Source of the DNA: Ophelia neglecta
Lineage: Eukaryota
Reading direction: 5' to 3'
Assembly (NCBI GenBank): GCA_965285935.1
Contig: OZ260662.1
Coordinates: 102,300,001-102,364,000, forward strand
Length of the DNA stretch: 64,000 nucleotides
Of this stretch, positions 53,301 to 62,300 are shown piece by piece. A program made the position numbers. Numbering within the stretch: position 1 is the stretch's first letter; each line of letters starts with the position of its first letter.

Positions 53301-56300
53301 CAAAGTAGACATCACCGATTCCTTTAGGACAATACGCATGACAGTGTTCAGGCCAGCTCCTAACATCACACAGGAGCAGAAAGGTAAGTTTGTGCAAGTT
53401 TGTTCTTGAACTAACCTATATCATTGGTTACTTTTAATATGTATTTGCCGATATAATGCAATGTAACACCAAAAGATGCTGATATTAAATTTGACGGAAT
53501 ACAGTTTGAAGCCAGATATTTTGGATTTTGTTAAGATCTACTGTCGAGTTCTTGCCATAAAGAAGAAAGCACTGTAACCACTAACATCAATCGAAATGCG
53601 TTGATTTAGAAATCACAACTAATCATTAACATTCTAATTCAACCATAGCGTGATAAGTGTACTGTCATATGGTGTACATGTTACTGAAGCACTCCCTTCC
53701 CCTTCACACAGACACCTACACACAAATCTTATAGAATCACATAGAAGCCAATTAAAAGGATATTTCCAATAATCGCAGCTCACTTTCTCTTAATAGAACT
53801 ATCACAGTATATAGCTGCTTTTCACCAAATTTCTGCACATCTGTAAGAATATTCTATACATTTTTCCGTTAGGAGAGTGTCTAATTGCCTATACAATGTG
53901 TTTATAAAACGTATAGTAGATAACTGACTATTACATGTTCCACTTTGTTCTGTGGCTACACCCTGAACAGCTTTCTATTGGAGTAAAACAAACCAAAGTA
54001 TGTGTTCAAACCGTTTTTATTTCATTCCACTTTTATATTGGCTCATTTAATGTTGATTATCATCTTCTTTCTATTAAGTTGACTAAGTTTTTGTCACACT
54101 TTGAATTATTTGGTGCTTTGCACTAAGAATATTTGATTCTTTTGTTAGTAAAAATTCTTTTAATTTACGTAAAAATCTTTTATATTTTAATTTCTATCCA
54201 TACAGTCATGTTACTGTTTTAACTTGTTCTCAAATTCATTTGTGCTATAAGTGTCGACAGTGACAAACGATATATCGAAGGTTGCACGATAACTTACGTA
54301 GCTCTTGGGCCCTACTACGAAACACATGTGTGATATTCTTTTTTCTCCTTTTACTTCAGTTATATTACAGGATCTTTTGTTCCATATCCTTTATTCATTT
54401 AAAATAATGGTTGAATCATTTTGTGGCAATGTGATTGTACAGGAAATAAAGGGCATTTTTTCTTCTTTAAACATTGCATCGTCTTCGTGTATAAGGTAGT
54501 TCTTCTTAATTCGCACTGGCTACATGTACATATAACCACTCGCCTAGGCATTAACATCAATTTCTACACAATATTCTATGAAAAGGATAAGAAAGCAAGT
54601 ACATGTACATGTATGTAGTTGCACTGCATGGTTTAAACATTAAAAAACACTAAATAACTTTCTGCATAATCTAAGTATTAATATATGATTGTGTGAATTT
54701 TGTTCTGAATCACTGGTGGTTTATATGTTCTATCTATTAGTGCATTTGAGCAGGGGTTTTGAACTAAAAGTAAATGTACAACTATTTGACTCTTTATGAT
54801 GCATAGTTTTCAATCAATTTATTTTTTTTTTGTAATAAGTTCATTTTGTAAGGAAATACTTCAGACTATTCTGCTAATTTCTGATCATTTTAATTGGTGT
54901 TTCTTTTGGTTCTTCTTTAATGTGAAGCATTAAAAATTTCGATCAGCATATATGTTGCCTGTATATTGCAATAGTACGTCTCTTGATGCATCACCAATCC
55001 TACAATCCATAGTAGGTTTTTGTTGCTGTTGATGCCAACACTGTTGTTTTGGTTCATTGTTCGTCTTTTTAAAGATTCTGATGTGAACTATGAAGGCAAG
55101 GGAGAAACTGAGATGACAATATTCACTCCATTCATTGCCGTACTGTGTGTGATTATCAGCTTCCTGGCTATACTACTTTTTATTGGTTTCATCACGGATT
55201 CAGGTAAGATGAACATTCCAGTACACGACAAATGTCAATGCACTTGCTTTGAATACTGTCCTAAGAATATCTACAATTTTCACCACGTGGAGCTCAACCG
55301 GACATATTAATTCATATTAATTGACGATAGGCTGATTGTGTCATAATATATTCTTGCTTTGTTTCATGTTAGAAACCATGATTTCTATTTTCTATCATAA
55401 AGTCATCAATTTTGTGACCATGTTCAGGCAAGAAGAGTAAGAAGAGTGACAACAAAGTTCATTCCCAGCATCTCCTGTTTGTGGTGTGCTTTGTTACGTT
55501 CCGAGCTGCCTACTCCATCATCCTAACATTCACAGTACTACTTCTGCTGATCAGACATGTCAACAGGCATGTGTATCTTATGTTTAGAAATTATGGCATA
55601 TAAAAATATATAGAAAACTATTGAAGTTGTTGTTTTTGCTTTTGATCAATGTGGTAGTGATAATGTAACTTTATTAAATATGCTAATGATTATGTTATAC
55701 AGTTTCATCGTGCTTTAAGTTTCTCAATTTGTTATGCAATTCTATTGCCTTAATTATGTTATTCAGTTTTAATGTTTTATATTTAAGCACAACTTATGCT
55801 TTATCCCACAAACTGTTATTGCTTCGTAGGGAGTCTATTGGGACATTGGTGGAGTTCTCTAGGTATGCTGAAACTGCAGAAAACAACCAGAAGCTAGAGA
55901 TTGACAAGATACAGTCGTTTGTCCTGGATGAACTTATCAGACAAAACGACCAGGCTAACAACACAAAGTTCGAGTGTGAACAGAAACTGCAACAGCTACA
56001 AAGTGTTCTGGAGGATGTGAGTAAACTGGCAATGATTTGATAATATTCCCAGATATTATAAAGCTGCCACTTAACAAATGCGAATTAACGTATAATAGCA
56101 CGTGCTGTTTCAGTTTTGTTTGCATTATGGTGGTGATTTGTTAAAGGTGGGTATGAGTTAAGAGAACCCTGAGTAGTTATGATTCCTGTTGTTCACAAGC
56201 ATCCAGGAAAAATGGAAATCATGATATGTTATAATAACATAATTATTACTTTGTGACATCAGGCTATTAAAATCGAATCTGATTCTTTTATATATATATA

Positions 56301-59300: not shown

Positions 59301-62300
59301 TACATGAAAATATATTAATGGATTTTCCTTTTAATCAGGTTTAATCTACTAAGACTGAAGCCAATGTTTGAGATGGAACATCACCCAGCTCCAATAGTAA
59401 ACCACACCTGATTGTTGCATGGATATTTGTATATTGAGTTCTTGGTCTTAGAGCGCATCATGCACACTTGATAATTGTGACGCTGAAACACAGGACCATT
59501 AGTAAGTGTTGTCATTAAAGACAACATGAAGACAGTTGGCAAGCACATTAGGGACATGGCATCGATTGACTGTAGATGTAGTTAACACCATCTTTAAGTT
59601 TTCACATCTGACGCTAGCCCCGTTCACGTTACAACCCAATGTGCATACGTAAAGAACTACAGACACATGGATCAAGCCAGTGCATCCTCAGTATGAACTT
59701 GATTGTGGTTTTCATTGGGATAACAGTGTATTGGAGAATCTCCGTTTTTTAGTATTGTCGATGTACACCCATAGTTAGTACAACAAACAGATCTCATATT
59801 ATACACTGCCCATTGGCAGTATTTTTTTATGGTTAAAACAGTTATGGTATAACAGAAAGATGCTTAGCAGCGTTTATGAGAGATAGTGTGAAGATCTGTA
59901 CTGGTTTTTTTTATATAATATGTAGTAATACCCTTAACTTAAATAATAATTGAATATTCAAATTTTGCTCCTGCTCTGTTTGACAGAATATCCAATCCTT
60001 TGGTATTATTTTATTTAGCTATTACAGTGACTGCATTACTGCAATTTTTTTTTAACTGTATTACACAGTATGATAGAATGCAGGAATGCATTATTCCACG
60101 TGATTAATCAGTACTGTTATTATGATAGAAATATGTGTTATATGACTGTTGGAAGGCTTTAGGTATCACAAAAAGTTTCGCTCATTTCAAGTTGGCGCTT
60201 TCCAGTGCTTCCATGGGAGTCATTTTTCATAAGATAGCTGTTATATACCATTTGGAAATGAAGACTTTTATATTCTTTCCAACTATTATTACTGCATGAT
60301 AACGACCGGATTGGGTCATAAGTCATATTATGAAGTCAATTTGTTTTAATTCCAATATTTATTATGAATAAAATCAACATTCCAAAGAATTTAGACAGAC
60401 AAATCTAATACATTCTCATCGCATGTACTGAATTAAACGCATAGCGTGTATTGCAAGGAGAGCAAAGTCTACTTTATGTACATGAAAGTATATCTATCTA
60501 AGTGTGCTTCTTTTACAAAGCTATACATATTATCCTGATTGGAGTTAAATATCTCGATTACTACTGTGTATGAAATGTGTCTGAATATTTATCTAAATAA
60601 ATTCGTATCTGAAATTGAATGATTTTTGTCAGTATAGTCTTGTCAAGTTGTCATTTCAAACAATTTAATTTTCTTAGTTCTCTATGTTAATAAAAGTATA
60701 CTTAGTCTAGATAACACTCAAGTTTGTTTATGTGAGCTCTTCAGCAGCACAAACCAGATTGTTCCAAACACTTCTCCAAAGAAACTTGCACGTCTATCAG
60801 TTTAACTGTCCACCTAGTCCGCCACCATTTGCTTTGGCTGTTTGTTCCTCTCAAACAAATAGGTCGATATTCACAATATTTTTCAGGTATAGAGATAAGC
60901 ATGGGAGTTAACACAACAACATTGATCCTGGTGCATATACTTCAAGATTCTACAAAGTTTCTATGATATAAACCTTAAATATCATTAAATGTTTGTTTTG
61001 AACTCCTAGGAGTTTGACAATTTAAGAAGAAACAAGTAAAAGCCAGAGTTAACTGTTGGTGTTTTTCTGTTCAAATCTAATAAATTATGAAATATGTAAA
61101 CGGATCATCGTAGACAAGAAATGTATTACCTTAACATTAAAGAAGAACCGCCTTTTATTCATGGCTATGGTTAAAGCTGAAGTGCCCGGTCTCCGTCAAA
61201 GTCCACTTAGAGCCACTCAACATGGTCCTTGCCATGCAGGTTAACAGCTGTCCGTTAGTCAGGGAGTTTTGAGACCTTTTCAATATTACCTCTTCTAAAA
61301 TACTTAGGCAAAAGCACTATTATTCTCGAAGTAGTTAGGTGTAAATGGTGCGCCTGTCACCTAACAAAGATAGATATCTGCTTATTTACTAGATCTTCAT
61401 TCACATCTGTACAGCTGTAGCGAGTATGAGGTCGAATGTTCAACATCGGCAACTAGAGGCCTATTTCGTTTCAAAACATTTGTTTACCTCATATAATGAA
61501 TAGCCATATGTGATGGTAAAATACAAATTAAATTTAAATAATACTTTATAGTGGTTTGATGTTTTTCATGTGGATCGGCGTGAAGATGACTTGACTCAGA
61601 CCACTGGCCGGTATGTTAATTATATATGTAATGCTTTATAGCTGGCTTTTTCACTCAACTGGCATTCATAGTTTGTCACATATAATCATAATTATATTTG
61701 GTGGAGTAGCTAGAATTTTATGACTTTGCTAGTTACCTTTTCAAGTAATTATTTGGTAATTTTCAGAATATGATCAAAATTTGATCAGTGTAAAACTTTT
61801 GGGAGTCGCTGGGAGGAAGGTCCCCCGGAATATTCTTACTAACCCTAATCCAAACTCGGGAGTCCCCCAGTCTAGGATTCCTACTATTTTAATTCTGCCT
61901 GTGTAGACATCCTGGTATATTAGATATCCAGTCTCGAAAGTCTAGTTTATTATGTCCGTCGGTTCTAAGGCACTGGTATACTTCGTCCCCGGGGTATTAT
62001 TACCCTGTGCTTATCCGGGGCACTGCACTCAACAGCCCGGAGACCAAATGGTCTTATACTCTGGCATACTTGATCTAAACCCTTGCCATTGAACTATCTC
62101 CAAGATATCCCTCTTCAATCTCAGTGTTCAATACTTGACCTCATGTATTGACATTTGTAAAAGCTTTCTAAACAGAATAAATATACTCTATTCATATCGA
62201 ATGGTACAATTCACAGCACAGTATAAAATTCACTATTAGAGATTTAAATTGGCCGGTTTCCAAGTGCAGCGCTGTTCAGCGTATATGGTATATTCAACAC

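Follow-up and report, generated by a model that had tools for sequence, protein, structure and literature searches.

Pentaspan glycoproteins with long helical outer loops form a small and poorly understood class, and the mode of action of the prominins and tweety proteins is debated. The C-terminus of DCST1/2 and of their fly and worm orthologues is cytoplasmic, cysteine-rich and RING-like. Here we describe a membrane module with a prominin/tweety-like layout, predicted from positions 55075 to 59411 on the plus strand of a 64,000-nucleotide stretch of the Ophelia neglecta genome (assembly GCA_965285935.1, contig OZ260662.1, positions 102,300,001 to 102,364,000; the whole stretch is referred to as the window). 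An initial annotation had ascribed to this module a prominin/tweety-like topology and a possible affinity to DC-STAMP and OC-STAMP. PMC11405016 describes prominins as proteins with two large outer and two small inner loops, the outer loops being ~280 amino acids (aa) long, and with a near-invariant tryptophan in the fifth transmembrane segment (TM5), Trp-795 of human PROM1. The same paper gives ~120 aa for the outer domains of tweety, names 7P5J as an example of a solved TTYH structure and regards prominin and tweety as only distant homologues. DC-STAMP is called a 'dendrocyte expressed seven transmembrane protein' in PMC8055269.

As the initial annotation had proposed, the module is like prominin in its predicted layout: five helices, N-out/C-in orientation, a short basic inner loop 1 and two large, mainly helical outer loops, which bear cysteines and sequons and are predicted to be glycosylated and to contain long helices. 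Outer loop 1 is ~247 aa long, compared with the ~280 aa given for prominin in PMC11405016. The module departs from prominin in its shorter outer loop 2 (~150 aa) and in the length and variability of its inner loop 2, and no sequence or profile match ties prominin to the module family. Moreover, prominin is free-standing, whereas the module trails an ectodomain of ~800 aa and two further helices; these helices of the whole protein lie ~800 aa upstream of the module, beyond the ectodomain. Tweety (TTYH1-3) shares the five-helix topology and the helical outer domains extending from the membrane helices, but its outer domains of ~120 aa (PMC11405016) differ in size from the ~247 and ~150 aa of the module, and neither a Pfam match nor a Foldseek match to solved structures at E <= 0.001 was obtained. 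DC-STAMP, OC-STAMP and DCST1-2 are multi-pass membrane proteins like the module; however, no DC_STAMP match was found, the module has five helices instead of seven, and its tail is free of cysteine. The proposal of the initial annotation was partly supported: the module resembles prominin and tweety in layout; no support was obtained for its belonging to either family or for the link to DC-STAMP.

Our reading combines an identity and a mechanism. It is very probable that the module belongs to one gene of the uncharacterised family represented by two database proteins, P0058 and P0118, and that it has an N-out five-helix topology. We propose more tentatively, at somewhat below even odds, that it provides the anchor and stalk for a glycoprotein of the adhesion or receptor type. 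For the two combined, a probability of about 0.55 is a compromise figure.

The module and the gene it belongs to

Eleven stop-free exons on the plus strand within 55075-59411 constitute the module delimited by the initial annotation. An AG acceptor precedes all 11, the donors are GT in nine of ten cases and GC in one, and the phases sum to 632 codons, including the TGA at 59409-59411. The composition of the window is eukaryotic (~37% G+C, no N), with short introns bordered by AG and GT.

Exon 1 (55075-55203; exon 15 of the initial annotation) has an AG acceptor and a GT donor, is entered in phase 1 and encodes the end of the ectodomain and TM1 (~55119-55193). Exon 2 (55428-55566) contributes the basic inner loop 1 and TM2 (~55472-55552), with an arginine within the helix. 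Its donor is the GC at 55567-68; an alternative GT 6 nucleotides downstream would add two residues (55567-55574), and by the lengths of the relatives the GC donor appears to be preferred. Outer loop 1 extends over four exons: exon 3 (55830-56016) with the first long helix, the sequon NNT and an invariant cysteine; exon 4 (56346-56458), which carries the sequon NLT and coincides with a tblastn high-scoring segment pair (HSP) at 56346-56459; exon 5 (57074-57279) with the returning helix; and exon 6 (57373-57729), in which the loop ends with another NLT sequon and is followed by TM3 (~57588-57647), with its invariant aspartate, and by the start of inner loop 2. The variable part of inner loop 2 is encoded by exon 7 (57990-58072; 27 residues), which has an open frame and AG/GT sites. 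Exon 8 (58168-58302) encodes the end of this loop, TM4 (~58195-58245) and the start of outer loop 2. Outer loop 2 continues in exon 9 (58477-58784) as a very long helix and a cysteine-bearing turn, with the sequon NCT, and ends in exon 10 (59024-59188), where the sequon NAS is followed by TM5 (~59109-59180). A short cytoplasmic tail and the TGA stop are encoded by exon 11 (59339-59411). No second copy (paralogue) of the module was found elsewhere in the window, and three minus-strand open reading frames (ORFs) overlapping the module region, antisense to exons or intronic, had no Pfam match.

Exons of the window were compared singly, and database relatives served as stand-ins in whole-module comparisons. 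Of 75 candidates in a word-index search with the largest module exon, a single protein emerged: P0001, which is a read-through ORF from a related species and has 62% identity. The family profile combined P0001 with the two window exons that it matched, each entered as its own row; from a set of 1.84 billion representatives it returned 116 proteins at E <= 1e-3, 73 at E <= 1e-10 and 10 at E <= 1e-30. Most of the 116 are exon-sized fragments. Thirteen are longer than 400 aa, and ten of these 13 are proteins of 1,248-2,202 aa, matched near the C-terminus. Two relatives have names, both 'uncharacterized protein', and both come from nemerteans: P0058 (LOC141910697, Tubulanus polymorphus) and P0118 (LOC135494709, Lineus longissimus).

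Per-exon identity to the window is ~44-62% for the relative P0003 and 33-47% for P0058. The values for P0003 are 44% in exon 3, 42% in exon 4 (the only BLASTP match of this exon, E = 2e-7), 59% in exon 5, 58% in exon 8, 62% in exon 9 (E = 1e-44), 61% in exon 10 and, for exon 11, 81% over 16 residues of the P0003 tail; identity to P0001 is 60% in exon 5 and 62% in exon 6. P0003, which among the spliced relatives is the closest to the window, also has a poly-Gln/Pro insertion (residues ~311-367) in the cytoplasmic TM3-TM4 loop, which the window does not have. A word-index search with P0003 yielded no longer relatives, probably because the poly-Q/P words crowded them out.

Searching the window with the relatives by tblastn gave HSPs from 1252 to 59387, on the plus strand only; those of P0058 span 3259 to 59189. 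By single-stretch BLASTP 17 of 19 window exon stretches were collinear with 13 long relatives (14 stretches matched in P0058), and the two without a match in these 13 proteins were module exon 1 and the 27-residue exon 7. Within the module, nine of the 11 exons aligned collinearly (E <= 0.01) with as many as 13 long relatives. From the N-terminus onwards, the relatives consist of a signal peptide, a short outer segment, a transmembrane helix, a long low-complexity cytoplasmic stretch, a second transmembrane helix, the ectodomain and the module. Their ectodomain of ~800 aa consists of EGF-like and calcium-binding EGF domains, two or three TNFR-like repeats and ~600 aa without a Pfam match; EGF_CA and cEGF each matched seven, and EGF_3 and TNFR_c6 each six, of 24 alignment rows scanned with Pfam. 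Altogether ~1,200 residues of the ~2,000 aa protein have no Pfam match. These results point to the module as the C-terminal part of one very large gene, which in the window extends from ~1252 to 59411 and has its 5' end upstream of the window. The initial annotation had treated the module alone; it is very probably the tail of a ~2,000 aa protein. Judged by sequence, the family comprises conserved large invertebrate surface glycoproteins of 1,700-2,250 aa, annotated only as 'uncharacterized'; few and indirect literature searches found no description of it.

Topology, conserved residues and predicted shape

EGF and TNFR-type domains are extracellular domains. Because they lie directly upstream of TM1, TM1 runs from outside to inside; with five helices, both large loops are then outside, and the other two loops and the tail inside. 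The Lys-rich first inner loop (five lysines among its first nine residues) agrees with this orientation. Hydrophobicity was assessed as Kyte-Doolittle averages over 19 residues (KD19), the maxima of which were 3.13 in exon 1, 2.08 in exon 2, 2.21 in exon 6, 1.71 in exon 8 and 2.68 in exon 10; in the remaining module exons the maximum was at most 0.65. Seven of the ten relatives longer than 1,200 aa have the same five hydrophobic peaks, at spacings of ~+45, +270, +80 and +165 residues, and the gene models of the other three are truncated or without one segment. The stretch assigned to TM4 in exon 8 is helical in the AlphaFold2 models of two relatives. Inner loop 2 is ~60 aa long in the window and much longer in P0003, and the tail after TM5 has ~25 residues and no cysteine. 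Taken together, the KD peaks, the helices at the same places in the two models and the upstream EGF/TNFR domains predict an N-out, C-in module of five helices. The five segments, the basic TM1-2 loop and the N-out orientation named in the initial annotation were all recovered, the last of them anchored by the TNFR-like repeats and the calcium-binding EGF domain that the gene encodes upstream of the module.

The lengths of the outer loops in the window, ~247 aa (~250 aa in the initial annotation) and ~150 aa, are sums of per-exon counts and were not taken from a joined sequence. The sequons NNT, NLT and NLT in the TM2-3 loop, and NCT and NAS together with cysteines in the TM4-5 loop, were present at the places quoted in the initial annotation, so that the outer loops are predicted to be glycosylation-competent; the TM4-5 loop exon carries four cysteines. 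The TM2-3 loop had also been called heptad-like. When loop exons were tested against shuffled sequences, the observed 3.5-3.6-residue periodicity was reached by 16 of 1000 shuffles in exon 3 and by 532, 273 and 171 of 1000 in the other three loop exons tested; the description holds for exon 3 and fails for those three.

Conservation was scored as the number of relatives with the residue of the window over the number having any residue in the column. Gly37 and Leu30 of exon 1 are common to 11/11 relatives, in an alignment in which this short exon is partly misplaced. His14 of exon 2 is common to 11/11 and Tyr28 to 10/12; the position of the TM2 arginine is polar (R/Q/N/H) in all 11 relatives reaching it and is followed by a Tyr-Ser pair (10/12 and 11/12). 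Outer loop 1 retains Glu34 (13/13), Arg37 (12/13) and Cys49 (13/13) of exon 3 and Trp30 (14/14), Phe53 (13/14) and Trp56 (14/14) of exon 5, and its returning, membrane-proximal part also has a proline and a tryptophan, each in 13/14. Asp86 of exon 6, which lies in TM3, is kept in 14/14 relatives, and just inside after TM3 there are a histidine (11/13), Arg93, Gly107 and Pro109 (13/13 each). Phe6 (10/12), Pro8 and Lys9 (11/12 each) of exon 8 precede TM4. Exon 9 contributes Cys64, Cys76 and Cys91 (12/12 each), Asn23 (13/13) and Tyr63 (11/12) to outer loop 2, and Trp50 of exon 10 (10/12) is part of TM5. Four outer cysteines are thus invariant, that of exon 3 in loop 1 and the three of exon 9 in loop 2. 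Among short motifs the best conserved are on the inner face, next to the inner ends of TM3, TM4 and TM5, and the invariant TM3 aspartate is matched by the always-polar position in TM2.

The family seemingly falls into two groups. The group of the window has arginine at the polar TM2 position; the other has glutamine, asparagine or histidine there and a different conserved C-terminal tail. The relatives concerned are P0059, P0065, P0072, P0076, P0081, P0083 and P0094.

Statements on the shape of the module are carried over from the two AlphaFold2 models. The model of the last 649 residues of P0058 (126-row alignment) had a mean predicted local distance difference test score (pLDDT) of 74.9 and a predicted template-modelling score (pTM) of 0.50; that of P0003, made with a cleaner 48-row alignment, had 76.6 and 0.53. 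Both are nearly all-helical, with helices of 50-75 residues extending from TM2 and TM4 and into TM5 (108-170, 179-228, 462-533 and 569-621 in the P0058 tail; 20-88, 94-146, 423-497 and 533-585 in P0003). The long loop helices are the parts of highest confidence (block means 92-98); confidence is low for inner loop 2 and for the end of loop 1 next to the membrane. A short strand after TM3 (298-303) is placed together with a strand of the C-terminal tail (591-596) in the P0003 model.

Named families, proposed mechanism and rival explanations

The search for family membership used the Pfam models Prominin, Tweety and DC_STAMP. HMMER filters drop most matches above ~0.1, and absence from Pfam results accordingly means nothing better than ~0.1. 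None of the three was found with ten single module exons (E <= 10; nothing reached any cut-off), with five long relatives (E <= 0.01), with six relatives (full list, E <= 10) or among the best 25 of the 42 families matched by 24 alignment rows (E <= 10). Sequence searches of the PDB with the first profile and with the largest loop-2 exon gave chance-level matches only, a module-only profile of 260 positions gave none, and P0003 alone gave only poly-Q artefacts of the huntingtin type. With the whole-family profile 84 chains were matched at E <= 1, and the best 60 of the 84 all lay within profile positions 518-628, the EGF region; the best were the EGF_CA arrays of ADGRE5 (E = 2.3e-32), NELL2 and uromodulin. 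Among the matches listed for these PDB sequence searches there was no tweety chain. ADGRE5/CD97 is an analogy of architecture, an EGF-bearing ectodomain on a multi-pass C-terminal unit. The likeness is limited to the positions just given, and neither a seven-helix G protein-coupled receptor nor a GAIN domain was matched.

Foldseek comparison with the PDB returned 14 matches at E <= 10 for the P0058 tail model (best: Atg17, E = 1.5) and 124 for the P0003 model (best: ABCD1, E = 0.67), none of them at E <= 0.001; query-normalised TM-scores (TMq) were at most 0.13 among the matches listed, and these included no tweety or prominin chain with either model. The P0003 model had 277 matches at E <= 10 among the predicted viral structures of BFVD, again none at E <= 0.001. 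These negatives are weakened by the pTM of 0.50-0.53 and by the difficulty Foldseek has with long helices, and, as solved and predicted viral structures were compared, they bear on prominin, DCST and OC-STAMP only if solved structures of these exist. Within these limits, the structural check against TTYH that the initial annotation had suggested gave no match to a solved structure at E <= 0.001, and the matches listed included no tweety chain; for membership in the prominin or tweety family there was no matching evidence from Pfam, PDB sequences or Foldseek (E <= 0.001). ESM Atlas likeness of the P0058 tail to viral fusion glycoproteins, with scores of 0.81-0.83, was rejected: a score of 0.8 is attained by shuffled proteins in one third of cases, and we treat the likeness as chance. 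With P0003 the ESM Atlas gave no usable feature match and structure TM-scores of at most 0.31.

The mechanism that we propose has the module serve as a membrane anchor with a rigid helical stalk, that is, the prominin and tweety layout in a new context. The two outer loops would pack as a disulphide-tied helical bundle standing on the membrane, with two disulphides tying the stalk, one of them probably between the loops, and the EGF/TNFR ectodomain would sit on or beside the stalk. A buried Asp-polar pair of TM2 and TM3 may hold the helix bundle together, or may bind a lipid head group or an ion, and the conserved inner face may dock a cytoplasmic partner.

Several points weigh against this reading. 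The mechanism draws on layout and conservation only, and the exon and splice model of the window is a prediction from sequence. TM4 is marginal in the window, with a KD19 of 1.71, and periodicity of the heptad type is significant in only one of the four loop exons. As the pTM is only 0.50-0.53, packing as one bundle, disulphide pairing and the Asp-polar contact remain proposals. No Foldseek likeness to solved tweety structures was seen, and to say that the module works like prominin or tweety is an analogy of layout only. Finally, an invariant acidic residue within a helix is just as compatible with a channel or transporter.

Descent from the prominin/tweety superfamily, with the module as a remote true member that bends or organises cholesterol-rich membrane as reported for those proteins, would account for the shared number, order and orientation of the helices, the short inner loop 1 and the two large, helical, glycosylated and cysteine-bearing outer loops. 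Even prominin and tweety count as no more than distant homologues of each other, their loops measuring ~280 and ~120 aa, and prominins have a near-invariant TM5 tryptophan (PMC11405016); a TM5 tryptophan is present in 10/12 relatives of the module. The latter residue, however, lies at the inner end of the helix, and as there is no alignment to the prominin tryptophan, their equivalence cannot be established. The long and variable inner loop 2, the lack of any Pfam match or PDB sequence match to the module and the Foldseek result (no PDB match at E <= 0.001, best 1.5 and 0.67, no tweety chain among the matches listed) make this descent unlikely. A five-helix bundle, probably oligomeric, acting as a channel, transporter or lipid scramblase regulated by the ectodomain is suggested by the invariant TM3 aspartate (14/14), the always-polar TM2 position with its Tyr-Ser pair and the strongly conserved inner-face motifs. 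We consider this quite unlikely: isolated buried acid-polar pairs frequently serve helix packing of a purely structural kind as well, the ABC-transporter matches of Foldseek had E >= 0.67 and TM-scores of at most 0.11, and no channel or transporter family matched above chance, the sole name of this kind being Neur_chan_memb (E = 0.22, one of six proteins).

The affinity to DC-STAMP and OC-STAMP suggested in the initial annotation, which would make the module a cell-fusion factor of the DC-STAMP/OC-STAMP/DCST type, could appeal to the multi-pass structure with long outer loops and to the viral look-alikes at 0.81-0.83, a level that shuffled proteins reach a third of the time. With no DC_STAMP match in Pfam, five helices against the seven of DC-STAMP (PMC8055269) and a cysteine-free tail, we find it hardly credible; moreover, the look-alike result was not repeated with P0003, and the viral Foldseek comparison gave no match at E <= 0.001 and named no fusion glycoprotein among the best 50 of its 277 matches. 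It is likewise very improbable that the link to the upstream exons is an artefact and the module a separate small gene or a decaying copy. An in-frame Met just ahead of TM1 in exon 1 and the existence of module-only database entries (P0003 and P0094) would suit a separate gene. With its AG acceptor and its entry in phase 1, however, exon 1 requires an upstream exon and cannot begin a protein; P0003 starts in the middle of TM2 and is a partial entry; and at least ten independent long gene models join the ectodomain and the module in one protein. Against decay, all 11 exons are open and their splice sites intact.

The preferred reading, an anchor and stalk unit at the end of a large surface glycoprotein, has a bolder extension, which is possible but doubtful. 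The module may represent an undescribed pentaspan fold or superfamily, with a disulphide-tied helical stalk of ~100 angstroms on a five-helix base with a buried Asp-polar site, in an invertebrate surface receptor whose stalk would be joined to EGF/TNFR adhesion modules and to an N-terminal membrane hairpin of the astrotactin kind. If true, signals from cell contact would feed straight into a membrane-organising unit resembling prominin. As a layout, pentaspan glycoproteins are known; the family, the context and possibly the fold are new. Either the family widens the prominin-type superfamily beyond the reach of profiles, or the layout arose independently, and both outcomes would inform on the purpose of the layout. 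A conserved gene for a ~2,000 aa 'uncharacterized' protein can now be treated as a defined family with a testable topology, although its practical value is modest at present.

Upstream exons, the N-terminal region and repeats

Upstream of the module, the gene begins in the window with the membrane segment ahead of the ectodomain (approximately 1252-1416, plus strand, as are all the following exons), matched by BLASTP/tblastn in five relatives (best E = 5e-10). A first EGF-like domain (approximately 1805-1966) has matches in ten relatives and a sub-threshold Pfam match to EGF_Tme5 (E = 0.0014). The calcium-binding EGF domain at 3259-3396 is matched by Pfam EGF_CA (E = 1.9e-11, 44.4 bits, cut-off 27) and by nine relatives. 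Three TNFR-like cysteine repeats follow. Repeat 1 (approximately 17852-17938) has no Pfam match and BLASTP matches in seven relatives, right after their EGF_CA; repeat 2 (approximately 45458-45529) has a sub-threshold TNFR_c6 match (E = 0.0037) and collinear matches in five relatives; and repeat 3 (approximately 46620-46697) has a sub-threshold TNFR_c6 match (E = 0.0045) and matches in eight. About seven ectodomain exons encoding ~600 aa occupy 49832-53376, collinear with 8-10 relatives by tblastn/BLASTP (HSP bounds 49832-50122, 50589-50873, 51104-51343, 51505-52092, 52381-52797 and 53026-53376); no Pfam family matched this block. Introns of ~14 kb (3397-17851) and ~27 kb (17939-45457) part the calcium-binding EGF exon from the TNFR-like repeats, and elsewhere in the gene most introns measure 90-2,000 bp. 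A hydrophobic run at 45386 was considered as a signal peptide and rejected: relatives have this exon in an internal position, and the run belongs to the end of an intron.

The N-terminal architecture of the relatives, two helices around a cytoplasmic stretch and then EGF-like domains, recalls that of astrotactin 1/2. In bioRxiv 10.1101/493858 the topology of astrotactins is described as a signal peptide, an outer segment, two helices around a cytoplasmic stretch and a large outer domain, with the second helix cut by signal peptidase; the proteins are called vertebrate-specific there. Their ectodomain contains a MACPF domain, according to PMC4892435. In the KD profiles of five full-length relatives a long low-complexity stretch lies between two helices, and EGF-like domains come next: P0058, P0011 and P0076 have a signal-peptide peak and helices near residue 105 and near 390-630, and P0072 and P0081 two N-terminal helices and no signal-peptide peak. 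The second N-terminal helix (~1252-1311 in the window) ends in a manner like a signal-peptidase site, with Val at -3 in nine of ten relatives and a small residue at -1 in eight relatives of one alignment as well as in P0058 and the window; in the other alignment this column is unclean (three gaps, one Phe). Pfam ASTN_1_2_N matched P0118 below threshold (E = 1.4e-4, 21 bits, cut-off 27), and this was one of 14 long members. A C-terminal pentaspan module like that of the proteins studied here is not known from astrotactins, which are reported as specific to vertebrates (bioRxiv 10.1101/493858). Neither MACPF nor any other astrotactin ectodomain domain was matched in the Pfam lists of the relatives, and a literature search for astrotactin in invertebrate taxa found nothing relevant among the papers listed. 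The window holds only the second N-terminal helix, and most of the astrotactin-like region lies outside it; the resemblance is a lead only.

Repeats were seen in the introns of the large gene. A dispersed repeat of ~340 bp has four copies, at 20525-20864 and 30630-30964 on the plus strand and at 34618-34934 and 47373-47588 on the minus strand, all intronic and 87-88% identical to the copy at 20.5 kb. It looks like an element of the short interspersed (SINE) or miniature inverted-repeat transposable (MITE) type, and a unit of ~60 bp from its flank recurs at ~12 further places. Tandem arrays with up to 17 copies lie at 18097-18371, 21350-22051, 22230-22340, 23625-23806, 27287-27832 and 48861-49410, with periods of 62, 57/40, 38, 18, 39 and 32 bp. 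Most of them fall within the long intronic tract that separates the EGF from the TNFR-like exons, and one precedes the exon at 49.8 kb; some yield long spurious ORFs on both strands.

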